The translations under genes and the position numbers were made by a program. A stretch of DNA of 32,000 bases from Candidatus Saccharimonadota bacterium (GTDB lineage: Bacteria; Patescibacteriota; Gracilibacteria; BD1-5; UBA6164): NCBI GenBank assembly GCA_004563595.2, contig CP042461.1, positions 630,001-662,000 on the forward strand, read 5' to 3'. Every line of letters starts with the position of its first letter. The stretch's first letter is position 1. This document shows, piece after piece, positions 3,006 to 26,268 of this stretch. A model generated the notes under the pieces. That model saw only the letters and a list, made by a program, of their open reading frames with translations, was not told where the DNA came from and did no database searches.

Positions 3006-3311
3006 ATGAAAATTGGGTTGATCGTTTGTATTATAGTATTAGCTATTGTTTCTTTTGATAACTATCATATCAGGGTAAAACTTAGCAACCAAGTAAGTAT
3101 GACGAATCAGGTTCGATTTCATTTTGATCATTATAATGATGGAATAAGTGCGATTGTTTCAGCTTATAATGAAAAATGTCAAATTCCTACAGATACTGTA
3201 TTGGAGTTATCACTTTCTAAGCTATCTGGAAAGGAAAAATCTTATCCTGCTGTTACTCATATTATGAATAAACTCTCGGAATCTATAGGTGCTGTATCAA
3301 GTAATTGATAA
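3006..3311 (+). CDS. Small membrane-anchored protein, 100 aa (101 with a terminal Gly under code 25); autonomous cassette
   Basis: TTGACT-N16/17-TAAAAT promoter-like sequence at about 2937-2965 and GAGG 8 nt before the ATG. The N-terminus MKIGLIVCIIVLAIVSF is hydrophobic. All 4 internal Gly are GGN. The ORF ends TGA TAA (3306-3311), and a terminator follows. Confidence 0.6.
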
Positions 3312-3337
3312 TTTGTCGCTGAATAGAGTTAAAATAT

Positions 3338-3364
3338 CCCCCCTTAATAGGGGGTTTTATTTTA
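3338..3364 (+). terminator. Intrinsic terminator of the 3006 cassette
   Basis: ccccc-ttaata-ggggg hairpin followed by ttttatttt. Confidence 0.7.
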
Positions 3365-3465
3365 TTGATTTTTTTGTGGGTGTAGGCTACCCTTTAATTT
3401 AAATTATGACCTAAAGATGAAGACTACCCTCTTTCTTCGCTATGCTACGAAACAAATAGAAGAAT

Positions 3466-3502
3466 AAAAAACTAGCCCCCTAAAGCGTGGGGCTAGTTTT
3501 TT
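3466..3502. terminator. Bidirectional intrinsic terminator
   Basis: aaaaaa-CTAGCCCC-ctaaagcgt-GGGGCTAG-tttttt. It lies downstream of the minus-strand gene ending at 3548. Confidence 0.7.
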
Positions 3503-3547
3503 ATAGTAAATTTTATTCTATCTGATATAGAAGTATAAAGTATTATA

Positions 3548-3898
3548 CTACATATATTTTTTTGTAAGCTCATTTAATTCATCCATATCTATTTTTGCTA
3601 ATTTTTCAAGTCATATATCATTTATGTCTTCAGCAGATAACATATAACCAATTACAGTAATTTTTTCTACTGTCATTGATTCTAAAGAAAGAATTTCTAA
3701 TCAAATAGTATTTTTTTGTTGTTCGCTTAGATTGTTATTTATAGCTTCAAGTTTTTCTTTAGAAATATCTGAAGAATTAATGATTTCAGCATTTGTACGA
3801 GTAGTCTCTACAACTGCATTAATACCTTTTCACTGTTTAGATTCATTTTCTAATGAATTATTTTCTAGTTCTTCTCAATTCTCAGGTAATTTATCCAT
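3548..3898 (-). CDS. Hypothetical acidic protein, 116 aa (code 25)
   Basis: ATG 3898 to TAG 3548 is continuous with 4 TGA read as Gly (MDKLPENGEELENNSLENE...LTKKYM*). No SD and no recognisable domain. Confidence 0.5.
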
Positions 3899-4037
3899 TG
3901 TTTTATTTTAATTAATAATATTTATTTACGTAGATACTTGATATTAACATATAAATCATTAATTGTCAAATATATATTATTTTCATCATCTTGAAGTATT
4001 CAACAATAAGATAATAAGTTGCACTTAATTATATCTT

Positions 4038-4217
4038 TTATATATTCATAACATTATGGATAGAAGCATAAAACCAGATAGACATAATAAGAGCACTAAA
4101 TAGAATCTTGAAATGTCATTCTTGTTTCAGGATTATTAGAAAGATGATCAAAGGAATTATAAGAGTTTGGAACAAAAAGAAGGGGTAGTCTCATAGTCAT
4201 ATAAAATAATTGTACAT
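4038..4217 (-). CDS. Possible small membrane protein, 59 aa (code 25 only)
   Basis: GAGGAGGGGAG lies 10 nt upstream of ATG 4217. The translation MYNYFIGLGDYPFFLFQTLIIPLIIFLIILKQEGHF... is hydrophobic. It needs 3 TGA read as Gly; under the standard code it is only 6 codons. Confidence 0.3.
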
Positions 4218-4492
4218 AGGGTTATACTCCCCTCCTCAGATATTCAAAACAAGCTTGGTGGTAACTGAGTCAAAAATGAAGTAAAGACTAATCAGGTTAA
4301 TATTATATTTATAACCTGAATGTAACTTTAATATACTTAACTGATTCTTTATAGTTTTGTTTGTATAATTATTAACAAGGTAATAAATTTATGATTAAAT
4401 AATAATTTTTTATTTATGTTTTTACAAAATAATAGAATATTATATAATAATTTTGTTTTAGGTTAGCGTAATTTTACTAATATGGAGGATAT

Positions 4493-4792
4493 ATGTTACA
4501 TTCTAAAATTTCTGATGTAATAACCGGAGTGTTAAGAATAGTTTTTATTAGATCCTCAGGGTCAAAATTTATAACAATTTTTTTTATATTATGGTTTTTG
4601 ATATTACCATTTACATCATTGATTTCATTATCTATGTTGCTGATTAATTTTGGTTTTCCTATAATGTTAGAACATAAATTGCTTTATATTATACCTATAG
4701 GAGGTCTTATAGTCTCAGTAATATTGCCTTATTTTATTTATAAGCATGGTAAGCATTACTTGTTTTTCCACGTTATTGATAATGATTGATAA
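4493..4792 (+). CDS. Small integral membrane protein, 98 aa (99 with a terminal Gly under code 25); autonomous cassette
   Basis: TTTACA-N17/18-TATAAT upstream and GGAGG 5 nt before the ATG. Two or three hydrophobic segments. All 6 internal Gly are GGN. Ends TGA TAA (4787-4792). Confidence 0.55.
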
Positions 4793-4928
4793 GTATGTAA
4801 ATATGAAACCTTTGGCAGACATGCTAGAGGTTTTTATTTATCTTAATAGTCAGAAAAATCAATCCTTTTTGTTGACAATACAATTAATAATATATAATTA
4901 TACTGAAATTGTTCTAAGGAGACGAAAA

Positions 4929-5108
4929 ATGAATACTCAAAATATTCAATCTAATAAACTAACTAAGCAAGAGGAATCTCGTGCTGCTGTAGAATTATTA
5001 GTATCTGATGTAGATTTTGAAAGTATTGCTAAACGTACATGTGAACGTGATAGACTAAGAAGGATAAGACCATCTGATATGAAGAAGGTTTATAACTTTC
5101 GTAGATAA
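4929..5108 (+). CDS. Small basic protein, 59 aa
   Basis: AAGGAG lies 7 nt before ATG 4929 (MNTQNIQSNKLTKQEES...RIRPSDMKKVYNFRR*). Ends TAA TAA and is followed by a terminator. The 5' extension in the ORF track (from 4746) has no SD. Confidence 0.5.
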   Translation: MNTQNIQSNKLTKQEESRAAVELLVSDVDFESIAKRTCERDRLRRIRPSDMKKVYNFRR

Positions 5109-5131
5109 TAAATATTTCGTTACAATTTCAT

Positions 5132-5156
5132 AAGGGCCTAATGGCCCTTTTTTTAT
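5132..5156 (+). terminator. Intrinsic terminator of the 4493/4929 unit
   Basis: aaGGGCC-taat-GGCCCttttttt. Confidence 0.75.
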
Positions 5157-5192
5157 TGTTTAGACAATTGAGTTTTATCTTTAATTAGACAT

Positions 5193-5220
5193 AAAAAAAA
5201 AGCCGTGAAATTCACGGCTT
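5193..5220 (-). terminator. Intrinsic terminator of cassette 5225-5653
   Basis: aaaaaaaaa-GCCGTG-aaatt-CACGGC-tt, which reads as hairpin plus U-run on the minus strand. It is homologous to the hairpins at 5754 and 6274. Confidence 0.75.
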
Positions 5221-5224
5221 ATAT

Positions 5225-5653
5225 TTAGTAAGCAACAATTATATGATAATTATTCTCAGAATCTATTTCTGGAAAACTAACTTCACCAAAATGATTTATA
5301 CTTACTGTAATTCTTGATGAATGATCTTTTCTTAAAAGCACAATCTTTACTTTAGATAAGTCACCCCGAAACTTTCTTCCTATAAAGTTTCTTCCTAATT
5401 GAAATTTAAACCCTAACTTGATACCGTCATTATTAAAGCGTTTACGTACTTCAATAGATAAGTCACCCTCAAAATCTTCATAATTATCAAGGTTACTTTC
5501 ACTTAATACATAATCTTTTAATAGATTATGTATATGATCTTTTAGTTGAGGTGTTTCTATCTTAACAGAATTTGCTTTTTGTTGAGCTAGTTCTGTAATA
5601 TTTAGGCACGTTATATCATTTCCTTTATGATAACTTCTTTTTGCACTTTCCAT
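5225..5653 (-). CDS. Hypothetical protein, 142 aa; member 1 of a tandem paralog trio
   Basis: AAGGAG lies 8 nt before ATG 5653; the ORF-track start at 5722 has no SD. There is a TTGACT-N16/17-TAGTAT promoter. 8 Gly, none TGA. The C-terminal block is INHFGEVSFPEIDSENNYHIIVAY. Confidence 0.6.
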   Translation of the reverse strand: MESAKRSYHKGNDITCLNITELAQQKANSVKIETPQLKDHIHNLLKDYVLSESNLDNYEDFEGDLSIEVRKRFNNDGIKLGFKFQLGRNFIGRKFRGDLSKVKIVLLRKDHSSRITVSINHFGEVSFPEIDSENNYHIIVAY

Positions 5654-5753
5654 AACTACTACTCCTTTTAATATGGATTTCCATTTGCGCGTGCATACTA
5701 TCCAGACTTTTTTGTAAGTCAAGAATAAACTTTTATCTACTCATTTAAGCGTG

Positions 5754-5781
5754 AAAAAAGCCGTGAAGATCCACGACTTTT
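5754..5781 (-). terminator. Intrinsic terminator of cassette 5793-6170
   Basis: aaaaaaGCCGTG-aagatc-CACGaCtttt. Confidence 0.65.
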
Positions 5782-5792
5782 CATTTTCTAGA

Positions 5793-6170
5793 TTAAAAAA
5801 CGTTTAAGCTATATTCATTTATATGATGAGGTAAGACGAAAAAAAATCGACCATACTTATCCAGATTTGTGCATTTTATCTTGTTACCAAAACTGGTCAC
5901 AAGAATATTGGTAGTAGTAAAATGAACCTTTTTAGTATACTCTTTGTGTACTTGAAAAGATATATAAACTACTCTCCCCGCTTCTGTTATAAATGAACTT
6001 ATTAGAAGGTTCAAAAAGACTCCGTCTTTTGAAATTAATTCTACTAAATTACCTTCTTCGTCTTTTAATTTGAGGTTGTGCATAAGATCACTAACCTCCT
6101 TTACTAAGTCTTCATCAAAACAAATATCTTCTGATGTTTCATTAGTAATATTTACTTCAGCCACACCCAT
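5793..6170 (-). CDS. Hypothetical protein, 125 aa; member 2 of the tandem paralog trio
   Basis: AAGGAG lies 6 nt before the ATG, and TTGACA-N17-ACTATA is upstream. 6 Gly, none TGA. The C-terminal block is NLDKYGRFFFVLPHHINEYSLNVF. Confidence 0.65.
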   Translation of the reverse strand: MGVAEVNITNETSEDICFDEDLVKEVSDLMHNLKLKDEEGNLVELISKDGVFLNLLISSFITEAGRVVYISFQVHKEYTKKVHFTTTNILVTSFGNKIKCTNLDKYGRFFFVLPHHINEYSLNVF

Positions 6171-6273
6171 TTCATTCTCCTTTTAAAATTGGGTTCCATG
6201 CTATTTTATAGTATAGTAATTTAATCATATGTCAAATTTGAAAGTTTTGTATTCGGTTATTTAATATGCAAAT

Positions 6274-6299
6274 AAAAAGCCGTAAGATATACGGCTTTT
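6274..6299 (-). terminator. Intrinsic terminator of cassette 6318-6641
   Basis: aaaaAGCCGTA-agata-TACGGCTtttt. Confidence 0.75.
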
Positions 6300-6317
6300 A
6301 CATGTCTTAGCTTTTGA

Positions 6318-6641
6318 TTACAATTTTACTTTTATGGTGATAAGCGTTACTTGGTCCGTTAGAAACTCTATCATACCATTACTATCTACTTCCTGAAAAT
6401 CTTGTATATTAACCCCGTTAATTTCAACTGCAGCCCAAATTTGGCTTAGATTTATATTTTTTTTAGACTTATTATTAAAAGTTAGATAGATAAGTTTAGT
6501 CTTCCCTATATATTGAGTAATGAGCTCAAAATATAGGGAATAAGAAATAGAATCATTATCTTCATTCTGAAGGATAAGATTTCCTTTTATTTCTTCAATA
6601 CCTTCTTGTAATGTAATCATTGCTACTTGAGTATTTATCAT
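6318..6641 (-). CDS. Hypothetical protein, 107 aa; member 3 of the tandem paralog trio
   Basis: AAGGAG lies 5 nt before ATG 6641. A TTGACT-N17-ATTATA promoter sits just after the recX stop. 5 Gly, none TGA. The C-terminal block is VDSNGMIEFLTDQVTLITIKVKL. Confidence 0.6.
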   Translation of the reverse strand: MINTQVAMITLQEGIEEIKGNLILQNEDNDSISYSLYFELITQYIGKTKLIYLTFNNKSKKNINLSQIWAAVEINGVNIQDFQEVDSNGMIEFLTDQVTLITIKVKL

Positions 6642-7379: not shown

Positions 7380-7526
7380 TTAATATACTTTAATAACGGG
7401 AGCCGGAAATGATGGATTTAATAATTTTTTTTGTTCCATTCGAGTCCGAAAAAACCTAAACACTCCATATAATGAGCCAAGTATAGCAACGCATACGAAG
7501 ATCCCATATAAGATTGATTGAATCAT
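7380..7526 (-). CDS. Small single-pass membrane protein, 48 aa; autonomous cassette
   Basis: AAGGAG lies 7 nt before ATG 7526 (MIQSILYGIFVCVAILGSLYGVFRFFRTRMEQKK...). 3 Gly, none TGA. TAA stop, then a terminator. Confidence 0.5.
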   Translation of the reverse strand: MIQSILYGIFVCVAILGSLYGVFRFFRTRMEQKKLLNPSFPAPVIKVY

Positions 7527-7657: not shown

Positions 7658-7933
7658 ATGGGTATCAAGCCATTAGCTGATAGAGTTTTATTAAAAGCAG
7701 TTACAAAAGAGAATGTGACAGCATCAGGGATATATTTACCAGAATCTGCAAATAAAGAAAGGTCGTATATGTATGAAGTAGTAGCTGTTTGAGCTGGAAA
7801 AAAAGATATTGATATGTCAGTCAAAATCTGAGATAAGGTTCTGAGTGGTCAATACTCATGAGATGATGTTAAAGTTGATGGAAATGAATACAAGATAGTT
7901 GCGATGGATTATATATTAGCAATTGTTGAGTAA
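7658..7933 (+). CDS. groES: Co-chaperonin GroES, 91 aa (code 25)
   Basis: MGIKPLADRVLLK...VAV[G]AGKK...VKI[G]DKVL...YS[G]DDVKVDGNEYKIV. All three in-frame TGA fall on conserved GroES glycines. Confidence 0.95.
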
Positions 7934-7950
7934 AAAGAGGAAAATAAAAA

Positions 7951-7996
7951 ATAACCCATCCCCCTTCGGGGACTTCCCTTCATCCGAATGGAAGAC
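7951..7996 (+). repeat. 46-nt double-hairpin intergenic element, copy 1 (after groES)
   Basis: ataacccatcccccttcggggacttcccttcatccgaatggaagac. Nearly identical to 9703-9748. Confidence 0.8.
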
Positions 7997-8027
7997 ATTC
8001 ATGTATTACCTATTAATCAAATAAACA

Positions 8028-9677
8028 ATGTCGAAAGAAATCAAGTACTCAGATGATGCAAGATCAATGATATTTAAAGGGATAGAGGTAGTTGCTAAAA
8101 CAGTAACTGTTACTATGGGGCCTAAATGAAGAAATGTTATCTTAGAGAAAGCATATTGAGCTCCTCAAGTAACAAATGATGGAGTAACTATTGCAAGAGA
8201 AATAGAGTTGGAAGATAAATATGAAAGTTTATGAGCTGAACTTGTAAAAGAAGCTGCTGAAAAAACGAATACTATTGCTGGAGATGGTACAACTACTGCT
8301 ACTCTATTAACATATGCACTTGCAAAAGAATGACTCAGATATATTAAGTCTTGAGTAAATGCAGTTGAATTAAAAAATGGTATGAAAAAAGCTGTTCAGC
8401 TAGTTTCTGATGAACTTGCTAAGAATTCAAAAGCTATTTCATCAAAAGAAGAAATAGCTCAAGTAGCGAGTATTTCTGCTCAAGATCCAGTGGTATGAGA
8501 AATTATTGCTGAAGCAATGGATAAAGTATGAAACGATGGGATTATTTCAGTTGAAGAAGGTCAAACTTTTGGTTTAGAAGTCGAAATAACTGAATGAATG
8601 GAATTTGATCAAGGATATTTGAGTCCTTATATGGTTTCAAATCCTGAAAAAATGCTTTCAGAAATAAAAGATGCTTCAATTCTTATTACAGATGGGAAAA
8701 TATCTAATATGCAAGACTTGTTACCTCTATTAGAATCTTTGGTTCAATCAGGAAAAAAAGATCTTGTTATCATTGCTGAAGATATTGAATGAGAAGTCCT
8801 CACTACGATTATTTTAAATAAACTCAAAGGTATATTAAATGTTCTTGCGATAAAAGCTCCATGATTTGGAGATACAAAAAAAGAAATGATAAAAGATATA
8901 GCTATTCTTACTTGAGCGAATGTCATTGCATCAGACTTAGGTATGAAAGTATCAGAAGTGAGTTTAGATGATTTATGAAGTGCGAAGAATGTGATGGCAT
9001 CAAAAGACGCAACCACTATTATTGCATGAAGCTGACATAAATCAGATATTGAATCCAGGGTTTCAGAGTTAAAACTTGCTATAGAAAACAGTGATTCTAC
9101 TTTTAATAAAGACAAATTAGCTGAGAGAATTGCAAAACTTGCATGAGGAGTTGCTATGATTAAAGTATGAGCTGCTTCAGAAGTTGAAATGAAAGAAAAG
9201 AAATTAAGAATTGAAGATGCATTAAATGCTACCAGAGCTGCTGTCTCAGAATGAGTTGTTGCATGAGGTTGAGTTGCTTTACTTACTGCTTCAAAGATTT
9301 TGAAATGAGTTGATTTTTGAAATGAAGACCAAACTCTTTGAGCTTCTATAGTGAAACAAGCTTTATCTTACCCAATGAAACAAATCGCAGAAAACTCTGG
9401 GAAGGAATGATCAGTAATTATGAGTAAAATTGAAGAGAGTGATAATATATTTTTCTGATATGATGCTGCTTGAGATAAATATGTTGATATGATTGTTGCT
9501 TGAATTCTAGATCCTAAAAAAGTTGCGAGAGTTGCTCTTGAAGAAGCTGTTTCACTTGCTGGTATGTTTTTAACTACAGAAGCTGCTATCACTTCCCTTC
9601 CTAAATCGGAATCAGATCTTCCAATGGGATGAATGTGAGCTGGAATGCCAGGTATGGGTGGAATGCCAATGATGTAA
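8028..9677 (+). CDS. groEL: Chaperonin GroEL, 549 aa (code 25)
   Basis: [12 protein letters not shown]...GPK[G]RNV (TGA 8127-8129)...AGDGTTTAT...C-terminal [12 protein letters not shown]. It shares its frame with the ORF-track fragment 8598-8792, and dozens of in-frame TGA align to Gly. Confidence 0.97.
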
Positions 9678-9702
9678 TAGAAAAATAATTGAAAAACCTT
9701 TA

Positions 9703-9748
9703 ATAACCCATCGCCCTTTGGGCACTTCCCTTCATCCGAATGGAAGAC
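9703..9748 (+). repeat. 46-nt double-hairpin intergenic element, copy 2 (after groEL)
   Basis: ataacccatcgccctttgggcacttcccttcatccgaatggaagac. It differs from copy 1 only within hairpin 1, and the stem is preserved. Confidence 0.8.
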
Positions 9749-11137: not shown

Positions 11138-11365
11138 TTATAACATGAGAAGTATAAATAATTTATCATATTCTGATAAATGGTATTCATATTCTATATA
11201 TAAATCTTCGTGAATACACCAGAGAGAACAAGTAACATTATTGTATGTATCAATATTTGATAAACAATAAGCTATAAGTAGCTCAATATGTTTTATACTT
11301 AGTTTTGTATTTTCTATTTTTATTTTCCTCTCGTTGAGTTGCGTTTCTATTATGTTTTTAGTCAT
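11138..11365 (-). CDS. Hypothetical protein, 75 aa; autonomous cassette
   Basis: GGAGG lies 6 nt before ATG 11365. TAA stop, no TGA, and the terminator at 11072-11103 is downstream. No recognisable domain. Confidence 0.5.
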   Translation of the reverse strand: MTKNIIETQLNERKIKIENTKLSIKHIELLIAYCLSNIDTYNNVTCSLWCIHEDLYIEYEYHLSEYDKLFILLML

Positions 11366-11540: not shown

Positions 11541-11617
11541 AAGGACCTAGCTTAATTAGAAGAGTGCTCGGATTCCGACCCCGAGAAGCGTACGTGCAAT
11601 TCGTGCGGTCCTTGCCA
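11541..11617 (+). tRNA. Atypical tRNA-like gene with encoded CCA; probable anticodon CCG (Arg)
   Basis: Perfect 7-bp acceptor stem AAGGACC/GGTCCTT, discriminator G, then CCA. T arm is GTACG-TGCAATT-CGTGC. Anticodon stem is CTCGG/CCGAG with a 9-nt loop ATTCCGACC, or a 7-nt loop TTCCGAC if A.C closes it. The D stem is weak (G.T, C-G, T-A, T.G), and the loop AATTAGAA lacks GG. Confidence 0.55.
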
Positions 11618-13259: not shown

Positions 13260-14846
13260 TTAATTCTTAAAACAACGAATAGCAGAACCCGTTGGACGTT
13301 CTATAGAATGAATAGCAGAAACGGCTGATTGAGTTGATACTCTTAAGACGTATCCATTCAAACTTGCTGGTGAAGCACTTGCATAAAATCCTATGATTTC
13401 TGTAGATGCTAAGTAAGCATTCCAATGTTGACGGTACCCATTTAATGGTAATTTAAGAGTACTTCTTATGGCTGCCCCATTATTTTGCCATCATCATGCT
13501 ATTACTACACCACTCCATTCCGTATAGGCAGGTATATGATATCATGTAACACATGGTCATTGCATTTTAGTTTGGTTACTAGGATCTGAGCTAGAATAAG
13601 TAGCTGTTGAACTATTTACAACTCACCAATCATTGGCACTTCATGCATTGGTTCATCCTGGTGACTTCCAATCATAACTCCATGAAGAGTTTGAATTAGT
13701 CCATGTTCCGTCTTCATAACTTACGTTTCTACCAAATTGGAAATGACCTCAGTATGAACTTGCAGTTGTTCATGCTATATTAGTTCATAGATTACAAGCT
13801 GATATTGTAAAAGGTCAATATCAATTTGCTGCTGGAACTGTTATATCATCTGTATCACATCATGGGTAATTAGCGTATTCATGGAATGCACTACAAGCAT
13901 TATTTTCTCATCAATTCAGACCATCACATGTCCATGTATAATTACTTCATTCTCATCCATCTGTTACGCTTGTTTGTGTTCAAGTGACACAGAGGTTAGT
14001 TGGTGTGGTTATGAAACTTCATGAATTATCTGATCCACATATCCCATTTTCTGGTGCTACATAATCTGATACTTTTCCTGTAATAATAGTTTCTGCAAAA
14101 TTTCGAGCTGTTGAGCTATCTAAACTTGCTACCACTGCATATATTTCATCATTCAACTCTGAAGTTGTTGAATATGCTGTTTTAAGGGCAAGAGCAAAAT
14201 TTTCATAGTTATCTTTTATATTATTACTGGTAAGTATTACTCATGAATTTGTAAGTTGTACTACTTGATAGTTTACAATTTTATCATTGAGTTCAAAATC
14301 CACTGCAGTGTCTAAGTCTTCTGCTGATGTATGAAGTCATGGGACTCCATAATAACTTCCATTATCTGCCAATAGATATAATCAGTTATATGTTCATTTT
14401 ACATATGGTGAAGTTGATTCTGCATAGCTTGTATTTGTGATGTTATTTTGTGCTAATTCAAAGTCATATTTTAATTCATATTCTTTCCTACTTAATGTCG
14501 TTGCATATTTCATAGTTTCCCCTGTTTTTGGATCTAGTGGTAATTTAGAAAGTCTTTCCACTTGTGTTTGTACTGTAGTATCCATATTTCAAGACTTCCA
14601 TAATATAACGGTTCATCATGAGGCTGTTATGTCTGAAGAATTTCAAGGGAGTGGATATTTTCCAGTTTTTAATGCAAAGAATTCTAATACATTTTCAGTA
14701 TTTTTTATATCTGTTATTCTTGCTCCATTTCGTGCATGCTTACTATATCATTGTAATGATATAAACGCTATAGTTCATAGGATTGTTAGAATAGTAATCA
14801 CTACTATTAATTCTACCAGAGTAAATGCTTGTTTTTTTAGATTCAT
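13260..14846 (-). CDS. Type IV pilin-like protein with a C-terminal FISUMP (Fibrobacter succinogenes major paralogous, TIGR02145-like) domain, 528 aa (code 25)
   Basis: MNLKKQAFTLVELIVVITILTIL[G]TIAF prepilin motif. The C-terminus carries [G]PCVT[G]YHIPAYTEWSGV...FYASASP...SAIRCFKN*. The whole ORF was checked codon by codon, and it includes ORF-track fragment 14394-14585. Confidence 0.8.
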
Positions 14847-15097: not shown

Positions 15098-15550
15098 CTA
15101 TCACTTAGGCATAAGTGATAGTCCCCTTTTTTGCATTATTTTTTTTGGTTTATAGGAGTCAAAAATTTCAATTGCACTGTGTAATTGATCTTCATGAACA
15201 GCTGATAAATGCGTAAATACAAATGCAGTACCATCACCTTTATCATCCCTGACGTGACGTAAGAAGCGAGCTTGGAGTTTTTTCAATGTTAATTTTTCTG
15301 ATGGTGAGTGTAAAATCAGTGTACTAAAATTACAAATCTCTCCTTGTTTTAGTGTTTTAAATCCACAACTATCATCTAACGTTGATAGATAGACACAACC
15401 CCCTTTTGTATTGATATTAATAATACCAGTAGTAAATGGTGCATGTGTTGCTGGAGTACCAAACCTAGGAATATAAATTTGAGCTTGAAAATTTGCATTG
15501 ACTCGAGAACTTTTTCTATCAGTTTTTTCATTAGGTTGTGCTATAGACAT
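15098..15550 (-). CDS. PilZ-domain-like protein, 149 aa (150 with a terminal Gly under code 25); autonomous cassette
   Basis: RKSSR (RxxxR) is followed 29 residues later by NINTKGG (D/N-x-S-x-x-G-like). GAGG lies 6 nt before the ATG. 9 internal Gly, none TGA. Ends TGA TAG (15103-15098). Confidence 0.6.
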
Positions 15551-16872: not shown

Positions 16873-18600
16873 TTATGGTAAAGCTATACCTCTTGTCATA
16901 AAATATATAATTGCGCAGAGACTTCCTGATCCAGGAACTGTTAGTACCCATGCTGATGCAATTTGTATCATATTTTTTTTAAGATTCAAGCTTCTTTGCT
17001 CTATTTCATGTTCTTTTTCTTGTGCTTTTCCTTTTTTCCTTTTAGCTTCTAATAATGAAATATTTAGGTGTATAAGTGTATCTTGTAACTTAATTATCTC
17101 ATCTTTAGTTATCTCATCTGGTTCAGCGATTGCTGATTTTCCATCTAAGACTGATTCGGTTTCTTTTATTTCTTTTTTTATTCTGTTTACTTTTTTCTTT
17201 CTTTTATTAATTTTTTTATGTGCATTCTCAAGTAGATTTGCATTTTCCCAGAATTTCGATCTTTCGCTATCTCCTTGTGGTTCTAGGATAACTACAATTT
17301 TATTTATCCATCCAATTATAGTTGGAAAATAAGCAACTGCAAATACACCTCCAACAGCTATATGAGTAGAACTAACTGGTATTCCTAGTTGTGACGCAAG
17401 AATTACAGTACAAGTTGATCCCATTGCAATAGAGAACGATCTTATTGGGGTAAGTTCTGTTATATCGCTTCCGACTTTTTTGATAATTCTTTTTCCAAAG
17501 AATCCAAGTCCGATCACAAGTCCTACAATACCAATGCCCATTATCCATAGGGGTATTGCTGCTTTTTTTGATATGCCATTATTAATAATCGCATCATAAA
17601 TTGCTGCGTATGGACCAATTGCATTTGCTATATCATTTGCTCCATGCGCAAAACATAACAGACAGGCTGCTCCTATTAATGGTTTGATAAAAAGATCATT
17701 TATCCAGTTGATGTTAGTAACAGAATTAGTAATACTCTTCTTATCAATTTTTGAAGTAGCTTTCTTAATTATTGGTTTTGCTATCAAATACGCTACAGTT
17801 GCTATACCAAACCCAATGAGTACTGCAACACTGGCATCTAAGCTTATTACTTTTTTTAATCCTTTAAGTAAAAGATAAGTAGTTGCTGACCATGTCATTA
17901 TTGCAATAACTAATGGAATTACTTTTTGTGCTGCAGCTAATTGATCTTTTTGATAAACAATAAATCTCTTAATAAACCATAAGAAGATAGCTGTTATTAT
18001 TCCACCAAGTACTGGTGAAGCAACCCAACTTCCAACAATTTTTAAAACTGTCCACCAAGCCACAATATCAAGACCACCAGCTGCTATTCCTCCTCCCAAT
18101 ACTGCTCCTACAATAGAGTGAGTCGTTGAGACCGGTGCTCCTAGTTTTGTTGCGATATTTAACCATATTCCTGCAGCAAGTAATGATGAAACCATTAAGA
18201 AAATATATTCATGTATATTTGATGAAAACATACTAGGATCAATAATTCCTTTTTTGATCGTTTTAACAACATCACCACCAGCTATGAATGCACCACCAGC
18301 CTCAAAAATAGCAGCTACAATAAGTGCAGTAGTTAATGAAAATGCTCCTGCTCCATATGCAGGACCAATATTGTTTGCTACGTCATTTGCACCAATATTT
18401 ACTGCCATATAGCCACAAACTAATGCACCAAATGCAAGAGTATAACTTGCGTTTATAATTGTGTTATCATATAGTGTAATTGTTCCAGCAAAGTATACAT
18501 ATATAGAACATGTAAGTGTTGCTAGGACTATTGCAGTAATAATGATAAAAAAATTATTAATTGTAATAGACTTATTATTGTCTACAGTTGTAGTATTCAT
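16873..18600 (-). CDS. Inorganic phosphate transporter, PiT/PHO4 family (PF01384-like), 575 aa from the second ATG
   Basis: The two PiT signature repeats GANDVANNIGP and GANDIANAIGP are present, with many TM segments. GAGGGG lies 6 nt before ATG 18600, and TTGACA-N18-TATATA is upstream. About 48 Gly codons, none TGA. A charged coiled-coil-like insert of about 100 aa lies near the C-terminus. Confidence 0.9.
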   Translation of the reverse strand: MNTTTVDNNKSITINNFFIIITAIVLATLTCSIYVYFAGTITLYDNTIINASYTLAFGALVCGYMAVNIGANDVANNIGPAYGAGAFSLTTALIVAAIFEAGGAFIAGGDVVKTIKKGIIDPSMFSSNIHEYIFLMVSSLLAAGIWLNIATKLGAPVSTTHSIVGAVLGGGIAAGGLDIVAWWTVLKIVGSWVASPVLGGIITAIFLWFIKRFIVYQKDQLAAAQKVIPLVIAIMTWSATTYLLLKGLKKVISLDASVAVLIGFGIATVAYLIAKPIIKKATSKIDKKSITNSVTNINWINDLFIKPLIGAACLLCFAHGANDIANAIGPYAAIYDAIINNGISKKAAIPLWIMGIGIVGLVIGLGFFGKRIIKKVGSDITELTPIRSFSIAMGSTCTVILASQLGIPVSSTHIAVGGVFAVAYFPTIIGWINKIVVILEPQGDSERSKFWENANLLENAHKKINKRKKKVNRIKKEIKETESVLDGKSAIAEPDEITKDEIIKLQDTLIHLNISLLEAKRKKGKAQEKEHEIEQRSLNLKKNMIQIASAWVLTVPGSGSLCAIIYFMTRGIALP

Positions 18601-18882: not shown

Positions 18883-18914
18883 AAAAACCCTCAACCTTAT
18901 AGTTGAGGGTTTTT
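18883..18914 (-). terminator. Intrinsic terminator of cassette 18917-19324
   Basis: aaaaaCCCTCAAC-cttata-GTTGAGGGttttt. Confidence 0.8.
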
Positions 18915-18916
18915 AT

Positions 18917-19324
18917 TTACGATAACAATGGTTCTTTCAAAACTAGAGATGCATTTGGAGCAAATTCTTCGAATGCACTAATTACTTTATCTAAAGCATG
19001 TTTATTGTTAAATAATGATGGTAAAATTGGGCTGATGTTCAGTTTCTTCAATACCTCTTCAGTTTCATTAGAAAATTTAACTGTACTCATAAGAGCTTGA
19101 GATATTTGAGAATTATCAAAATCAGGTCCTTCAATATTGCTAATTATAGCCGACTGTGAAGAGTCTAGCGTCAATATTCCATGCCAGTATTCAAAGGCTG
19201 CAGAACTACTTTCATCACGTAGTTTTCTAATATCGTTACATAATGATTCTACGTTTACTTCAGCTACATATGATGATAACTCTAGAGCATCTTTCAATAA
19301 TTCATCACCATCTTTATTATCCAT
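18917..19324 (-). CDS. Hypothetical acidic protein, 135 aa; autonomous cassette
   Basis: AAGGAG lies 8 nt before the ATG. TAA stop. 3 Gly, none TGA. No recognisable domain. Confidence 0.55.
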   Translation of the reverse strand: MDNKDGDELLKDALELSSYVAEVNVESLCNDIRKLRDESSSAAFEYWHGILTLDSSQSAIISNIEGPDFDNSQISQALMSTVKFSNETEEVLKKLNISPILPSLFNNKHALDKVISAFEEFAPNASLVLKEPLLS

Positions 19325-19438
19325 TATTATTACTCCTTTTTAATTTTTAATAATTATGGCCTAAATATTTATACGAATACTTTGTAATAAGTCAAAATAG
19401 TTTTCTTTTATTTAGAAAATAAGTGAGAAAGGTAAATT

Positions 19439-19490: not shown

Positions 19491-19865
19491 TTATGCATAT
19501 TGCTTCAATGGAACCTTATCTATTACCGTAACGTTATATGAAGATATATTGCTTAATATTTCTTGCATTTCTCCAATTTCGCTGGAATTTGAGAACATGT
19601 TATCAGTTAAATAACATATTACGTCGTATGATTTTGTTTCTGTTGGTACTAAAAAAGTTATTTTATCTTTTTTAGGTGGGTTAATTAAACGATCAAGAAG
19701 CCCCTTTTTTCTCACTAATTTCATTTCCCAAAGAGTTTTTTTATAAGGATTAAATAGCCATTTTCGTCTGAATACAATCCCTTCAACTTTATATCTGTTT
19801 TTTATAGATGAAGGCAAATTTTGTTTAAAGCCTAGTATTATTTTTTTACTTGCTTTTTTAGGCAC
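19491..19865 (-). CDS. Hypothetical basic protein, 124 aa (GTG start); autonomous cassette
   Basis: AAGGAA lies about 9 nt before GTG 19865. The N-terminus PKKASKKIILGFKQ...RRKW is Lys/Arg-rich. 4 Gly, none TGA. TAA stop. Confidence 0.5.
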   Translation of the reverse strand: MPKKASKKIILGFKQNLPSSIKNRYKVEGIVFRRKWLFNPYKKTLWEMKLVRKKGLLDRLINPPKKDKITFLVPTETKSYDVICYLTDNMFSNSSEIGEMQEILSNISSYNVTVIDKVPLKQYA

Positions 19866-20034: not shown

Positions 20035-20391
20035 CTATATATTTTCCCTTTCTCTATTTATATGAGCAATAAATCTTTTAATCATATTCACTAATTTTAT
20101 TACTTCATCAGCTGATAAATCAGGTCGATTATCATTATCAAAATAAGGCTTATCTTTACTTTTACAAGTCATATCTAGTGTGTAATCATCGAGATATTTC
20201 TTCCTTTGATGGTTATTTTCTATAAAACCCTGATAATTTTCTAAACATCCACGTAATGTTCGTTTTTCCAGGGATTTAATTATTTCAACTACTATACCAT
20301 AATCTCTTTCTATATTTTTTCCTTCATCTTCTATACTCTTACTTGAAGAAGAACCTATACTGAAAGAGGAATAGCTTAATTCTTTACTCAT
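20035..20391 (-). CDS. Hypothetical protein, 118 aa; autonomous cassette
   Basis: AGGGAG lies 9 nt before ATG 20391; the ORF-track start at 20421 has no SD. 5 Gly, none TGA. TAG stop. Confidence 0.5.
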   Translation of the reverse strand: MSKELSYSSFSIGSSSSKSIEDEGKNIERDYGIVVEIIKSLEKRTLRGCLENYQGFIENNHQRKKYLDDYTLDMTCKSKDKPYFDNDNRPDLSADEVIKLVNMIKRFIAHINRERENI

Positions 20392-21966: not shown

Positions 21967-23526
21967 TTATTTAAGTAGTCTTGCTTTGTCTAGTTGGTTA
22001 TCAGCTCAATCTTTTTTATATTGCTCTGAATCAAATTCTAATTCAATAGTCGGAAGAATACCTATTCAATCAATTCCTGTTTGAGTTTTTCCTGTGAACC
22101 ATTTAGCGATTGTATATTTAAGTGTTGATCCATCTTTGTATTCTCTTATTGTTTGCACAGATCATTTTCAATATGATTTTTCTCAAATTATAGTTGTATT
22201 TGGGAAGTAGTCTTTTATAGTTCCAATTAGAATCTCAGAAGCTGAAGCGGTTCATGAGTTTTGTAAAATAACTATTTTATAGTCGTTAAAATCTATCATA
22301 TTATATCAACGTGATGTGTATTGTTGATTTGATTTTAAGTATTTTACTACTGCTGTTGGTTTTCACTCTTCTACGAAGTGTGAAAGTATATCAGCAACTT
22401 GTCAGAGGTAACCTCATCCGTTATTTCTAAGATCTATTATTACTTTTTTTACCCTTCTTTGTTTTTTTAGCCCCTCTAATGCATTTTTAAAGTTTTTTGA
22501 TACATTATCTCAAAAACTTTTAATTTGGATGTAATACGTATCTTTTGTTAATAGTTTTGATTCAACATTTATAATAATAATTTTTTCTCTCGTAACATCT
22601 ATATTATATTCATTTCATCATCTTATTATAGTAAGTGTTACAGCGCTTCAAGCTGGTCATTTAATCCATGATATAACTTCTTTGAGAGAATTTTCTTTCG
22701 TCACTATTTTTCCATTTACTTTTGATATAATATCTCAGCTTTGTAGTCATGCTTTTTGAGATGGAGATCATGAAATTGGAGATATTATTTTTACAATTCA
22801 GGGAGTTTCCATAAGTACGTATGAACCTATTCCTTCATATTCACCATTGAGTCACTCATTAAAGTCTTTGCTTTCTGTTGGTGGAAAATATACTGTATGT
22901 TTATCTCCTATTCCTTTTGTAATTCACTCTATGGCAGAATTGAGTATCTCATCTTCACTAATATTCCCCTTCTCATAGTGTTCTTTGATAAGAATATCAT
23001 ATACATCAACTAAGATAGATTTTTTTTGTTTTATTTGTGATGTTTGTCAATATCTTCTAAATTTTGTAAACTCAATATTTATGCGTGAGTTAAGTTTTTT
23101 CAGGTCATTTTTTGTTGTATTCCTTGCCTTTAGTTTTTCTATTTCATTTGGGTTAATCATATCAAATCCTAATACTTTTTCAGATAATCTTAAAAAAGAG
23201 TATAATTCTATCTTTTTTTCTGGATGAATGCTTGTTTCAGTATTTTTTATAAGGTCCAAAAAAACAAGTTTTTGGAGTGATTTATAGAGCTCACTATTTG
23301 TATCTAGATTTTTAAATTTTAAATCTATATATTTATAGCTTGATGTTACCTCTTTATCTATGAGTGATGCAAGGTGGTTAAAAATATCTCTTCTGCTCAC
23401 TTCATTTGAAGTTGAGATATTCGTTGTTTCAATTCAATTCATTTTTATTTTTACTGCAAAAGATTCTTGTTGAAACGATGAAAATAAAATAAAAATAGTA
23501 GTAAGTATCAGTGTAATTTTTTTCAT
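21967..23526 (-). CDS. C-terminal processing peptidase, family S41 with a PDZ domain, about 519 aa (code 25); reading frame interrupted in 22861-22922
   Basis: Signal peptide MKKITLILTTIFILFSSFQQESFA. PDZ region is SPIS[G]SPSQKA[G]LQS[G]DII. Also DLRNNG[G]GYL, catalytic-Ser motif [G]TASASEI and catalytic-Lys motif [G]K[G]SVQ. A 59-nt segment encoding TKGIGDKHTVYFPPTESKD is one nucleotide out of frame relative to both flanks. Confidence 0.85.
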
Positions 23527-23574
23527 ATTTTAATTATTGTAAATAAGTTTAATTTTTAGTTTTTCTATATTATA

Positions 23575-23799
23575 TTAATTTGAGATAAATAATTCTTTTC
23601 CTCAAAATGGGTATGTGACTCAGAAGAATATCAATAACATTCATATGAGAATAATAACCAGGTAGGTTCACCCACTTCATATATATTTTTCAGCCCAATA
23701 AAAGTTTCATGTCCAGGATTTAATTATTTTTCTGTATTTTAATATTCCACTTCACAGAAATATAAGGAAAATTCAGTACAGTATTTCTACTATGATCAT
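23575..23799 (-). CDS. Small two-TM membrane protein, 74 aa (code 25)
   Basis: MIIVEILY[G]IFLIFL[G]SGILKYRK...[G]S G[G]TYLVIILI[G]MLLIFF[G]VTYPF[G]GKELFISN*. It lies 18 nt after the polA stop. 8 of 11 Gly are TGA. Confidence 0.45.
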
Positions 23800-23817
23800 T
23801 ATTTATTTGTTATTGTA

Positions 23818-25251
23818 TTATTTTGCTTCTTTCCAACTTAATCATGACTCTATATCCACTTTGAGTGGAATTGGGATGTCTTGAACTATGTTTTCCATTA
23901 TTATTTTTATTTCTGTTTTTAATATTTCCTTTTCTTCAGGAATAACATCAAAGACAAGTTCATCATGTACTTGCATGATCATCTTTGATTTGAGTGAATT
24001 TCTTTTTAAAAATTCTGCAATTTTTATCATTGCAATTTTTATAATATCTGCATTTGTTCATTGAATCGGCATATTTATCGCTTCCCTATTCGCAGCACTC
24101 TTTATAATACTATTTCTGTCGTTTATAGAGGGGAGATACCTTCGTCTTCAAAACATTGTTTCTACATATCCTTTTTCCTCACAATTTTTAATTGTGTTAT
24201 CAAGGTATTCTCTTACTTTTGGGTAATTTTCATAGAACTTATCAATATATATTTTTGCATCCTTCATATTTATCCCTAGCATTTTACTCAGTCAAAATCA
24301 GCTAATTCAATATATAACTCAGAAATTTACTGCTTTTGCAATTTTTCTCTCATTGTTAGTGATTGTTGATCATGGGAAAATAAATTCTGCTGTTTTATGA
24401 TGAATATCAATTTCATTTTTAAATGCTCAGAGTAAGTTTTCATCTCCTGACATGATAGCAAGAAGTCTTACTTCTACTTGTGAATAATCAGCTGCCATTA
24501 TAATTCAGTTTTCAAATCTAGATACAAATGCTGATCGAATTTCTCAGGCAATTCAATGAGATGAAGGGATATTTTGAAGATTTGGTTTCGTGCTTGAAAG
24601 TCTTCAAGTTGTTGTAACTGCAGAGTTATATGATGTATGAACCAATTCATTATCATCCAATAAGTCTAACAATCATTCAACATATGTAGATTGGAGTTTT
24701 GAATAATGTCTATAATCTACAATATTTTGAGCAATCGGGAATTCATGAGAAAGTTCTCAAAGTACATCAGCACTTACACTATATCAAGTTTTCGTTTTTT
24801 TACCTTTCGGGAGTCAGAGTTTTTCAAATAATACTTCTCCAACTTGTTTAGGAGATTTTATATTAAATTCTTCTCCAGCTTCATGAATAATTGTTTTTTC
24901 TAAAGAGTCGATTTCATTTTCAAGCAAAAGCCCTATTCCTTTGAGAGTATCTCTATTAATATGAACTCAAGTAAGCTCCATGTTCATAAGTACTTCTAAT
25001 AGAGGAAGTTCTATATCATTTAATATTTTTATATCGGTTGTTCCCTCTTCTTTATGCTGTAGGAAGATTTGATTTGTAATATATACATCTTCAGCTGAAT
25101 ATATAGCTGCTGAATCGAGTTCAACTTCTTTAAAATTAAGCTTTTTCTTATTGGTAACCTGATCATATGAAATCATTTCATAATTATCATTTTTTAATGC
25201 TAATTTATCTAATGATAATCATCTGACTCAGGGGTTTTTTATATATTCTCA
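23818..25251 (-). CDS. polA: DNA polymerase I, polymerase domain only, 477 aa (code 25)
   Basis: Checked codon by codon. Motifs: YSAEDVYIT (Exo III-like remnant), TTT[G]RLSSTKPNLQNIP, DYSQVEVRLLA (motif A), RKIAKAVNF[G]VIY[G]IS (motif B), QVHDELVF (motif C). First ATG is 25251, with an in-frame TAA at 25270-25272 and only stop-filled AT-rich DNA upstream. Confidence 0.93.
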
Positions 25252-25353
25252 TAAGAGAGTGTCATAATATTTAGCCACTTTTTATTATTAATAACTATTA
25301 ATTTTTATTATACATAGATAATCGATTATTTATAATTTGAAAAATAATTAATA

Positions 25354-25381
25354 TTGACAATATATAAGTTTTATATATATT
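25354..25381 (+). promoter_or_regulatory. Sigma-70-like promoter of the lipoprotein cassette
   Basis: TTGACA (25354-25359), N16, TATATT (25376-25381). The 16-mer tatatatttctgttgc (25374-25389) is identical to 26098-26113. Confidence 0.6.
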
Positions 25382-25469
25382 TCTGTTGCTTTTTAGATTT
25401 GCAGAGGATTGTTGTAATTCTAAAAAGGGGAAATCAAAACAAAATTATATGAGAAAAGGAGATTATCTC

Positions 25470-25991
25470 ATGCTACATAAAAGTGTTCTTTTAATGTTTC
25501 TACTTATAGCTATATATATTTTGGCTTCTTGTGGAGGAGGAAATCCTGGACCACCAGATCCACTCCCTGAACCTGAATATAATAATGAGAATCAAGACAC
25601 GGTTGGTGATGATTTAGAAGAATTATCTAAATCACCGATATCTTTTTATGATCTAAATATTGATGATGAAAAGTATTGGGAATCACAATTTGATATAGGA
25701 TATATTCTGACTGCAGAAATACCCTTAGATATTACGTTAGAATTATCTGGAAATACAAAACTATGTTTTTCTGTGGATTATTTAAGTGATGTTGATGACT
25801 GTGATGAGATTCAACTTCAAACAAAAGGACAGCTTGGTGATTTAGATATTACTGTAACTATTGATTCTGTAGCCCAGAATTATGAAAATAATTCTGTAAT
25901 ATATATTGAGGAAGATTCATTCGTTCATATACAGGCATATAGTTTAAAAGAAATACTTCTAAAAACTCAATTTGTTTTTAATATAAAATAA
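25470..25991 (+). CDS. Lipoprotein, 173 aa; autonomous cassette
   Basis: AAGGAG lies 7 nt before ATG 25470. MLHKSVLLMFLLIAIYILAS-C-GGGNPGPP has a lipobox (LAS|C). The mature part is acidic. 9 Gly, none TGA. TAA stop. Confidence 0.7.
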   Translation: MLHKSVLLMFLLIAIYILASCGGGNPGPPDPLPEPEYNNENQDTVGDDLEELSKSPISFYDLNIDDEKYWESQFDIGYILTAEIPLDITLELSGNTKLCFSVDYLSDVDDCDEIQLQTKGQLGDLDITVTIDSVAQNYENNSVIYIEEDSFVHIQAYSLKEILLKTQFVFNIK

Positions 25992-26014
25992 TTACTCAAG
26001 GAGGAGTAATCAAC

Positions 26015-26050
26015 AAAAAAGGAGCCATTATTGGCTCTTTTTATTTTTTT
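26015..26050 (+). terminator. Intrinsic terminator of the lipoprotein cassette
   Basis: aaaaaagGAGCCA-ttat-TGGCTCtttttatttttt. Confidence 0.8.
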
Positions 26051-26077
26051 ATAAGATTTAACTCATTCAAACAGATA

Positions 26078-26105
26078 TTGACATTGGAATATTTTTTTAT
26101 ATATT
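26078..26105 (+). promoter_or_regulatory. Sigma-70-like promoter of the mini-lipoprotein cassette (duplicate of 25354-25381)
   Basis: TTGACA (26078-26083), N16, TATATT (26100-26105), followed by the same tctgttgc. Confidence 0.6.
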
Positions 26106-26160
26106 TCTGTTGCAATACAAAAAAATATATAAAAAAATAGAAACGGGAATGGAAAATATT

Positions 26161-26268
26161 ATGATAAAAAATATGCTCTATGCTATAATATTATCGTCAA
26201 TTATAATGTTATCTGGTTGTCAAATACCATGTTTCGGACTCGATTTTGGGCAATTTTGTACTGAATAA
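26161..26268 (+). CDS. Mini-lipoprotein, 35 aa, with a Cys-rich 16-aa mature peptide
   Basis: MIKNMLYAIILSSIIMLSG-C-QIPCFGLDFGQFCTE* has a lipobox LSG|C. The SD-like sequence GGGAATGGAAA is weak. It sits between the duplicated promoter and the duplicated terminator. Confidence 0.45.
   Translation: MIKNMLYAIILSSIIMLSGCQIPCFGLDFGQFCTE

Follow-up and report, generated by a model that had tools for sequence, protein, structure and literature searches.

How do genes that have filled up with a reassigned stop codon and genes that are free of it come to stand side by side in one chromosome? This question is raised by a 32,000-nucleotide (nt) stretch, hereafter the window, from the genome of Candidatus Gracilibacteria bacterium 28_42_T64. 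In this AT-rich sequence (24-34% GC), 15 small self-contained genes, here called cassettes and named by their first coordinate, lie among backbone genes that use TGA as a glycine codon. The cassettes contain no internal TGA and are preceded by a Shine-Dalgarno sequence (SD), whereas the backbone genes are rich in TGA and, with one exception, lack an SD. The initial annotation had described this pattern, and all 15 open reading frames (ORFs) that it listed as cassettes were recovered at the same coordinates and on the same strands.

The conserved genes of the window are unbroken only when TGA is read as sense. An example is provided by groEL (8028-9677), with 28 in-frame TGA and 24 GGN codons. 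Its translation under code 25 (TGA = Gly) matches at 100% identity the NCBI groEL protein of 28_42_T64, an organism with a closed genome of 1.34 Mb, to which the phosphate transporter PiT of the window belongs as well. In groEL pairs of relatives, TGA and GGN alternate at conserved glycine sites, as expected for code 25. The genome paper also used code 25 and did not find prfB; it does not mention a pattern of SD-led or TGA-free genes (Sieber et al., 2019). Our curated set contains 37 genes in ~37 kb, comprising the window and 5.6 kb of downstream sequence from a JGI contig. It includes 16 cassettes (15 in the window and one just outside) and 20 TGA-containing backbone genes. Cassettes make up ~40% of these genes (16/37), and their coding sequence covers 19.5% of the window, less than the quarter given by the initial estimate. 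The window is also represented by the JGI contig Ga0239576_1000035 (418 kb) and by two Logan contigs of SRR3580189.

Glycine codons and initiation signals divide the genes into two classes

The split into two classes is genuine and far exceeds chance. With code 25 applied, the cassettes of the window contain 113 GGN codons and no internal TGA, in agreement with the ~110 glycine codons counted by hand in the initial annotation. With the 16th cassette, the count is 117 GGN, and internal TGA is absent from all 2190 cassette codons. The 472 glycine codons of the 20 backbone genes comprise 292 TGA and 180 GGN, that is, 62% TGA. The difference is highly significant (Fisher P = 1e-41), which bears out the early statement that chance cannot explain it. 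The TGA share of individual native genes spans 31% to 96%, and the counts previously given for groES (3 of 8), a methyltransferase gene (14 of 25), and the ORF labeled rep (22 of 23) are exact.

The second difference concerns translation initiation. SD strength was calculated as the free energy (dG) of hybridization of the 22 nt upstream of the start codon with CACCUCCUUU. These SD/anti-SD duplex energies range from -4.9 to -9.3 kcal/mol in the cassettes, all 16 of which are SD-led, and from -1.1 to +2.9 kcal/mol in the backbone genes. The weakest cassette is c26161, the only one for which a weak SD had been predicted. Likewise, the sole backbone exception is the one anticipated, an ORF of 807 amino acids (aa) with GAGAGGA abutting its ATG. 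In the curated 37 genes, SD presence and TGA-free status are tightly associated (16 genes with and 0 without an SD among the cassettes versus 1 with and 20 without among the others, P = 1e-9). TGA-free, SD-led backbone genes were named at the outset as the pattern that would speak against the split; the native gene ndk is TGA-free, but it has no SD.

The depletion of TGA is confined to the reading frame. Per codon, off-frame TGA amounts to 0.019/0.051 for the cassettes as compared with 0.017/0.054 for the backbone, and this normal density rules out avoidance of the TGA trinucleotide at the RNA level. The coding signature of the cassettes is also normal, with GC content falling over the three codon positions (GC1 > GC2 > GC3 = 0.41/0.32/0.18) and purines at 65% of first positions, both as in the backbone; together with ORF length, it rules out spurious ORFs. 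Avoidance of TGA by highly expressed genes is refuted by the 28 TGA codons of groEL, and its avoidance by membrane proteins by MscS (TGA at 18 of 25 glycine codons) and by a Na/H exchanger in another Gracilibacteria locus, L009 (19 of 33).

An artefact, whether chimeric assembly, spurious ORFs, or TGA-free stretches picked by eye, retains only a minute probability. It is true that the first reading was made by eye, that TGA-free ORFs are easier to spot, and that some cassettes span no more than 35-59 codons. However, an unsupervised ORF pipeline recovers the same SD-led, TGA-free class, which the three-position coding signature supports, and ORFs of 100-575 codons without TAA or TAG are, in DNA of 28% GC, very improbable by chance. 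Annotations of the genes exist in NCBI, JGI, or Logan. From position 4215 to the end, the cassette junctions read identically (100%) in three assemblies, represented by the JGI contig, both Logan contigs, and the curated genome, which rules out a chimera.

TGA is absent from the interior of the cassettes but not from their ends, and here the initial description has to be amended. Three cassettes, c3006, c4493, and c15098, carry TGA as the final sense codon, directly followed by TAA, TAA, and TAG, respectively; the others terminate directly in TAA or TAG. Such tandem stops occur in 3/3 TGA-ending cassettes versus a background of 5/37 (P ~0.0025). A parallel is provided by the code-11-compatible phages that Liu, Jaffe, Chen, Bor, and Banfield predicted to infect Gracilibacteria and Absconditabacteria, which have no in-frame TGA and whose TGA stops are backed by nearby alternative stops (Liu et al., 2023, mBio; PMC10746230). 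The cassettes share both features of this dual-code (11/25) compatibility, as well as the association with code-25 hosts and the same reading under codes 11 and 25. In contrast to the cassettes, those phages are whole genomes linked to hosts by CRISPR spacer matches, and SD usage is not part of their description. The cassettes are single genes amid core genes, with no phage hallmark genes in the window.

One additional ORF may be an exception. The unannotated 59-codon hydrophobic ORF at 4038-4217 (minus strand) has the very strong SD-like sequence GGAGGGGAG 9 nt before its ATG (dG -11.6) and contains three in-frame TGA codons; a standard-code reading would stop after six codons. If real, it would be the only SD-led gene with TGA. 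Elsewhere, three code-25 loci of ~40% GC (L016, L043, and L066) show four SD-like leaders per locus on TGA-containing genes, and SD use may vary among lineages of Gracilibacteria and Absconditabacteria.

The promoters and terminators named here are consensus matches. Promoter-like sites show no overall enrichment (125 vs 123 expected and 88 vs 96 expected in two counts), yet matches of at least 10/12 positions lie within ~100 nt upstream of 9/15 cassettes versus 1.1 expected (P = 3e-6). Terminator-like hairpins are enriched 5-6-fold (25 vs 4.2 expected and 11 vs 2.3 expected in two counts) and are found 3' of 11/15 cassettes. The early claim that most cassettes have both signals holds in this form, without any general excess of promoters. 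By these matches, the cassettes resemble morons in being single ORFs with their own promoter and their own intrinsic terminator.

Distribution and origin of the cassettes

We compared the locus with groEL neighborhoods from two relatives and 67 further metagenomic loci, of which 38 clearly use code 25 (279 kb). Among ORFs of at least 80 codons, the TGA-free, SD-led type accounts for 2/299 in these 38 loci versus 11/38 in the 28_42_T64 stretch (P = 6e-10). Genes of AT-rich Gracilibacteria generally have no SD. No homologs of cassette proteins were found in the 38 loci, whereas the recX-like, groES, groEL, ruvC, and pilin proteins do have homologs there. The adjacency of the recX-like gene and groES recurs, and the spacer between them contains no ORF of at least 80 codons in L009, L076, L068, and L046, a scan to which ORFs of the size of c7380 are invisible; in L048 it contains two small TGA-poor ORFs, neither of them SD-led. 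One of the two TGA-free, SD-led analogs elsewhere is a lipoprotein of the C92-family (YaeF/YiiX) peptidases; the other has no Pfam match and, by eye, an HExxH motif and an N-terminus resembling a signal peptide. This distribution supports the interpretation of the cassettes as lineage-specific insertions of a foreign-type gene class.

Only one cassette has a family match, the inorganic phosphate transporter PiT (16873-18600, minus strand), which fits PF01384 with E = 1.3e-90 and 304 bits (cut-off 33.7) over profile positions 1-348 of 350. For the small cassettes scanned, Pfam, PHROG, PADLOC, and NCBIfam gave no significant match; of two marginal hits below threshold, one pairs c18917 with SPO22 and the other c5793 with a methyltransferase model of PADLOC. 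The 90%-identity clusters of the 10 cassettes looked up contain only the 28_42_T64 genome, and for c15098, the only cassette searched exhaustively, no homolog was found among 1.84 billion representative proteins. The nearest PiT homologs, ~50% identical, come from Gammaproteobacteria and Campylobacterales, not from Gracilibacteria, apart from one close relative in L007; a GTDB scan with PiT gave, among the matches listed, only distant proteobacterial and Bacilli loci. The homology searches proposed initially placed PiT closest to standard-code Proteobacteria and Campylobacterales, but they identified no donors and left the small cassettes unmatched.

The close relative of PiT allows the age of the TGA-free state to be examined. 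L007, a 1.8-kb contig of JGI sample 3300017613, carries no gene but PiT; its product is 88.5% identical to the window copy, and the gene is TGA-free with the same SD. The two copies differ at 27% of fourfold sites, with 19/20 G-containing fourfold sites changed. At 18 conserved glycine sites the codon was swapped within GGN, TGA occurs in neither copy, and both the SD GAGGG and the -35 element TTGACA are conserved. Rates of TGA gain were calibrated on groEL from other lineages and rest on small counts. TGA and GGN were switched at 2/44 conserved glycine sites in the pair L038/L039 (fourfold divergence 0.07), at 14/59 in L009/L048 (0.28), and at 16/51 in L049/L054 (0.32), that is, at 24-31% of sites in pairs with PiT-like divergence. 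The native rate of TGA gain at glycine sites is ~0.8 x d4, where d4 is the fourfold divergence. A change from GGA to TGA is also seen in a sister ndk at 86.5% nucleotide identity. Had both copies of PiT drifted neutrally under code 25, ~5-14 TGA gains would be expected, and none is seen (P < 0.01), which excludes neutral drift of the pair in code-25 genomes. Either TGA was selected against, or the copies arrived independently after diverging in a TGA-intolerant pool; the divergence from L007 may have taken place within a standard-code pool.

We lean toward the explanation that the cassettes are moron-like horizontal imports from a mobile gene pool that is TGA-intolerant, SD-using, and AT-rich. 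The signature of code-11-compatible phages, combined with the moron architecture, favors such a pool as the source. Each cassette would be an autonomous promoter-SD-ORF-terminator unit inserted singly between native operons. In the donor pool, in-frame TGA would be intolerable, initiation would rely on the SD, and base composition would resemble that of the recipient. Code-11-compatible phages and other mobile elements linked to Gracilibacteria would be the most plausible members of this pool, and an AT-rich standard-code partner is less likely. In the recipient, the cassettes would be translated via SD/anti-SD pairing and the native genes via SD-independent A/T-rich leaders. The TGA-free state would be kept by rapid turnover, with all cassettes being young, or by removal of TGA-gaining copies that cycle through standard-code contexts. 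Two of the three possibilities raised by the initial annotation are compatible with the data: the first, imports from standard-code, SD-using donors, merges with the second, moron-like modules working under both codes, to which the TGA-then-TAA/TAG ends lend the signature of Liu et al. (2023). The third, a class kept independent of the UGA-decoding tRNA, is disfavored because three cassettes need UGA to be decoded and the class consists of orphans absent from code-25 relatives.

Comparison with known systems shows how far each analogy extends. Phage morons, as described by Hendrix and colleagues, are single prophage genes with their own promoter and factor-independent terminator; their products are often small membrane proteins or lipoproteins of unknown function, and they usually deviate in base composition. 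The cassettes, too, are single bracketed genes within a conserved gene order, and five of them (c3006, c4493, c7380, c25470, and c26161) appear by eye to encode small membrane proteins or lipoproteins. Unlike morons, they lie not in a prophage but in the bacterial chromosome, beside core genes such as groES/groEL, ruvC, polA, an S41 peptidase gene, and ndk, and they have the composition of the backbone, being marked by codon reassignment and initiation mode. In Mycoplasma and Spiroplasma (code 4), a gene from a standard-code donor initially lacks the reassigned codon and gains it over time. In contrast to such imports, the density of cassettes is far higher, the link with the SD is perfect, amelioration is complete except for Gly, Arg, and Leu, and the PiT evidence speaks against TGA gain at the native rate. 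Bacteroidetes combine SD-independent initiation with a retained anti-SD; similarly, native genes here have A/T-rich leaders and no SD, and a minority of genes have strong SDs. However, the few SD-led genes of Bacteroidetes are conserved native genes, and those described here are lineage-specific orphans. For the candidate phyla radiation, retention of the anti-SD and loss of bS21 are known from the literature.

Several observations weigh against import from a mobile pool. No integrase, phage gene, or flanking repeat was found in the window by profile scans and self-BLAST, and a PHROG scan of the window proteins likewise revealed no phage genes. A tblastn search of four cassettes against 50,697 GenBank phage records gave 0 matches, and IMG/VR scans with three cassettes found no relatives. 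Integrated prophages in these phyla are TGA-dense (Liu et al., 2023; PMC10746230), so that chromosomal TGA-free genes of phage type would be without precedent. Cassette GC3 (0.18) and almost all codon preferences are host-like, and a donor pool would need a nearly identical composition. With only ~50% identity to any standard-code homolog, PiT did not come recently from a lineage that has been sampled. Finally, neutrality for all 16 cassettes would require arrival within ~3-4% synonymous divergence, which for a symbiont with a genome of 1.3 Mb means a very high influx. The host-like composition and the TGA-free PiT pair thus strain a scenario of simple recent import followed by neutral drift. 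The cassettes do not fit the type of integron gene cassettes, since they have their own promoter-like sites and, except for one duplicated terminator, no common 3' repeat, and the window has no integrase. Nor do they form a classical genomic island, being interleaved singly over more than 30 kb, with GC and GC3 equal to the backbone and no integrase. Common mobile-element ends are also excluded, as self-BLAST gave only the terminator module of c25470/c26161 and a dispersed 47-nt element.

A different explanation is that the cassettes are a class of long-term residents of the lineage, in which purifying selection, at the level of the cell or of the gene, keeps out in-frame TGA so that they stay readable without UGA-to-Gly decoding. 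Its members might be expressed when tRNA-Gly(UCA) is limiting, or be read by the ribosomes of a standard-code partner or carried by a shuttling element. Composition and codon usage that are host-like except for Gly, Arg, and Leu agree with residence, and so do the PiT pair, with its conserved SD and -35 element and without the 5-14 TGA gains expected from the groEL clock, the lack of SD-led intermediates with few TGA codons other than the doubtful 59-codon ORF, and the TGA-free state of c5225 and c6318, which may be old paralogs. However, the class is nearly absent from other code-25 Gracilibacteria (2/299 ORFs), and its members are unconserved orphans. Three of them end in a UGA that needs glycine decoding, in contradiction to independence from tRNA-Gly(UCA), and the PiT divergence may predate entry, having arisen in a standard-code pool, as L007 holds PiT only. 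The codon usage of cassettes is like that of the backbone for 15 amino acids and differs for Gly through TGA, for Leu (p = 0.0045), and for Arg (AGA 0.48 and CGN 0.34 in cassettes vs 0.70 and 0.12 in the backbone, p = 0.002); Arg usage has not equilibrated with the backbone, which argues against long residence. We consider a resident class unlikely.

In AT-rich standard-code genomes, the Arg CGN share is similar to the ~34% of the cassettes, which would suit direct recent transfer from cellular standard-code bacteria (such as the host or, within the community, an AT-rich member of the Campylobacterota) by competence and illegitimate recombination, with no mobile pool involved. The best PiT matches include Campylobacterales and marine Gammaproteobacteria, and the sporadic SD-led, TGA-free genes of other loci, the C92-family peptidase and the protein without a family, resemble ordinary secreted proteins or lipoproteins. 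Against this scenario, the small cassettes tested have no detectable homolog in well-sampled cellular genomes, and the closest cellular PiT homologs are as distant as stated above. The GC3 of Colwellia-like hosts is much higher than 0.18, a mismatch with the cassettes, and an own promoter and terminator for each cassette would be unexpected in random chromosomal fragments. Cellular transfer of this kind is, in our estimate, distinctly unlikely, and a mobile, TGA-intolerant gene pool remains the explanation that we prefer.

Individual cassettes and neighboring genes

The first three cassettes lie on the plus strand. c3006 (3006-3311) encodes a 100-aa protein with an N-terminal membrane anchor and no family match, ends in TGA-TAA, and has four GGN codons and no internal TGA; GAGG lies 7 nt before the ATG (dG -7.0), a promoter-like site at 2936-2963, and a terminator at 3339-3354. 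No protein record matches the product without its terminal glycine. The small multi-pass membrane protein of c4493 (4493-4792) also ends in TGA-TAA, with six GGN and no internal TGA, GGAGG 4-5 nt before the ATG (dG -9.3), an 11/12 promoter-like site at 4421-4448, and a terminator at 4805-4834. c4929 (4929-5108), a basic protein of 59 aa whose gene is called on a 10-kb Logan contig from inside the window, contains neither glycine codons nor TGA and has AAGGAG 7 nt upstream (dG -8.2), a promoter-like site at 4872-4901, and a terminator at 5132-5149.

The next three cassettes, all on the minus strand, encode orphans and lack TGA. c5225 (5225-5653; 142 aa, eight GGN) is a soluble alpha+beta protein with AAGGAG 8 nt upstream (dG -8.4) and a terminator at 5220-5200; its single-sequence AlphaFold2 (AF2) model has a pLDDT (predicted local distance difference test score) of 66 and no fold match in PDB. 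c5793 (5793-6170; 125 aa, six GGN) has AAGGAG 6 nt upstream (dG -8.9) and a promoter-like TTGACA-16-TACTAT at 6235-6208, and c6318 (6318-6641; 107 aa, five GGN) has AAGGAG 5 nt upstream (dG -8.1) and a promoter-like site at 6706-6679. c5225 and c6318, two genes apart, are 25% identical over 83 residues (pairwise BLASTP E = 0.003; z = 4.7, with 0/500 shuffles scoring as high). Judging from this alignment, they may be old, remote paralogs, both TGA-free. Apart perhaps from this pair, self-comparison found no paralogs among the cassettes; a shuffling signal between c5793 and c25470 failed to hold in BLASTP.

Three further minus-strand cassettes are spread over the middle of the window. Between the recX-like gene and groES, c7380 (7380-7526) encodes a 48-aa single-pass membrane peptide with three GGN, no TGA, AAGGAG 7 nt upstream (dG -8.3), and a terminator at 7366-7345. 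The orphan c11138 (11138-11365; 75 aa) contains neither TGA nor glycine codons, has GGAGG 6 nt upstream (dG -9.3), and is the only cassette near a tRNA gene, 176 nt from tRNA-Arg(CCG) (11541-11617). c15098 (15098-15550), an orphan of 149 aa, ends in TGA-TAG and has nine GGN, no internal TGA, GAGG 5 nt upstream (dG -5.6), a promoter-like site at 15617-15590, and a terminator at 15086-15061; its AF2 model is unusable (pLDDT 35).

PiT, with 575 aa and 48 GGN, is followed by three orphans on the same strand, and no TGA occurs in any of the four. PiT itself has GAGGGG 8 nt upstream (dG -8.4) and a terminator at 16843-16810. c18917 (18917-19324) encodes an acidic protein of 135 aa with three GGN, AAGGAG 8 nt upstream (dG -8.4), and a terminator at 18915-18882. 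An ORF of 146 codons with two TGA (18903-19343, plus strand) runs antisense across all of c18917 and is probably a by-product of codon bias. c19491 (19491-19865), a basic protein of 124 aa with a GTG start and four GGN, has the SD AAAGGAA (dG -7.7), a promoter-like site at 19990-19961, and a terminator at 19466-19439, and c20035 (20035-20391; 118 aa, five GGN) has GGGAG 8 nt upstream (dG -8.1).

The last two cassettes of the window, on the plus strand, are also TGA-free. c25470 (25470-25991) encodes a predicted lipoprotein of 173 aa (LASC lipobox) with nine GGN, AAGGAG 8 nt upstream (dG -8.9), a promoter-like site at 25354-25381, and a terminator at 26017-26042. c26161 (26161-26268), a mini-lipoprotein of 35 aa with three GGN, has the weakest SD of the set (dG -4.9), a promoter-like site at 26078-26105, and a terminator at 26293-26320. 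The promoter-like sites of both are 11/12 matches of the form TTGACA-16-TATATT. Their 3' flanks (25992-26060 and 26269-26335) are paralogous, with ~83% mean column identity over 69 columns, and contain GGAGGA followed by an identical terminator hairpin, GAGCCATTAxTGGCTC. This likeness points to a cassette module that was duplicated locally. The 16th cassette (33018-33425), just outside the window, has a TTG start with GGAG 7 nt upstream.

A native contrast to the cassettes is provided by the TGA-rich groES-groEL operon (7658-9677, plus strand), which has no SD (dG -0.7 for groES and +2.2 for groEL). groES has three TGA and five GGN codons, and orthologs of the operon in other Gracilibacteria are 73-75% identical. 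The product of ndk (27209-27652, minus strand; PF00334, eight GGN) is 76-95% identical to many Gracilibacteria homologs, with 94% for the ndk of ENA ERZ24794642/ERZ24794644, and the relatives examined carry 0-1 TGA, so that some native genes are persistently TGA-poor. Since ndk is native and TGA-poor across the phylum, it is ruled out as an intermediate import.

An element of ~47 nt (AACCCATC[C/G]CC...ACTTCCCTTCATYCGAATGGAAGAC) occurs at 7950-7996 and 9702-9748, in sense orientation after groES and groEL, and a third copy lies ~2.8 kb past the end of the window, after mscS (L002:2847-2895, minus strand). It forms two adjacent hairpins without a T-run (z = -2.2 and -2.8), the first with a compensatory change. 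It has no Rfam family match and is absent from the relatives fetched; its structure and positions indicate that it may be a lineage-specific element of the 3' untranslated region or similar to repetitive extragenic palindromes. Among the other native genes, the ORF labeled rep (1044-2312, minus strand) has the most extreme TGA share in the window. Neither this label nor recX is backed by a family match; for rep, Pfam and PHROG gave none. The polA homolog (23818-25278, minus strand; 486 aa, GTG start) contains the DNA_pol_A domain only, and its 5'-3' exonuclease part is separate or missing. In the 528-aa pilin-like gene (13260-14846, minus strand), both same-sample Logan contigs end near 14500 (14499 and 14505, within 6 bp), which hints at a repeat or population variation in this surface-protein gene.

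The code boundary as a possible filter for gene exchange

A reassigned stop codon is often seen as a firewall to gene exchange. The locus described here suggests a firewall that is one-way and leaky. The code boundary would act as a filter, because TGA-free genes read alike in both codes and TGA-terminated genes would pass only with an immediate TAA or TAG. TGA-free, SD-led genes appear to enter the code-25 symbiont in large numbers and to keep the marks of the other code, whereas native genes, with TGA at 62% of glycine codons, would not work outside 28_42_T64. A further possibility, to which we assign a low probability, is that the cassettes form a code-neutral mobile compartment, kept readable by both systems and circulating between the episymbiont and its standard-code partners. 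If so, selection on shuttling genes would retain SDs, TGA-free reading frames, and double stops of TGA plus TAA or TAG in a genome whose native genes have given up all three; the genes might even be expressed in these partners, which could be the host bacterium or shared phages.

These observations raise the questions of whether SD-dependent initiation still works in a lineage whose native genes forgo it, and whether a code-neutral gene pool is shared by the symbiont, its host, and phages. The internal contrast in glycine codons and initiation signals provides a built-in marker of foreign and native genes for Gracilibacteria and Absconditabacteria, and the groEL-calibrated clock of GGA-to-TGA change offers a way to time imports.

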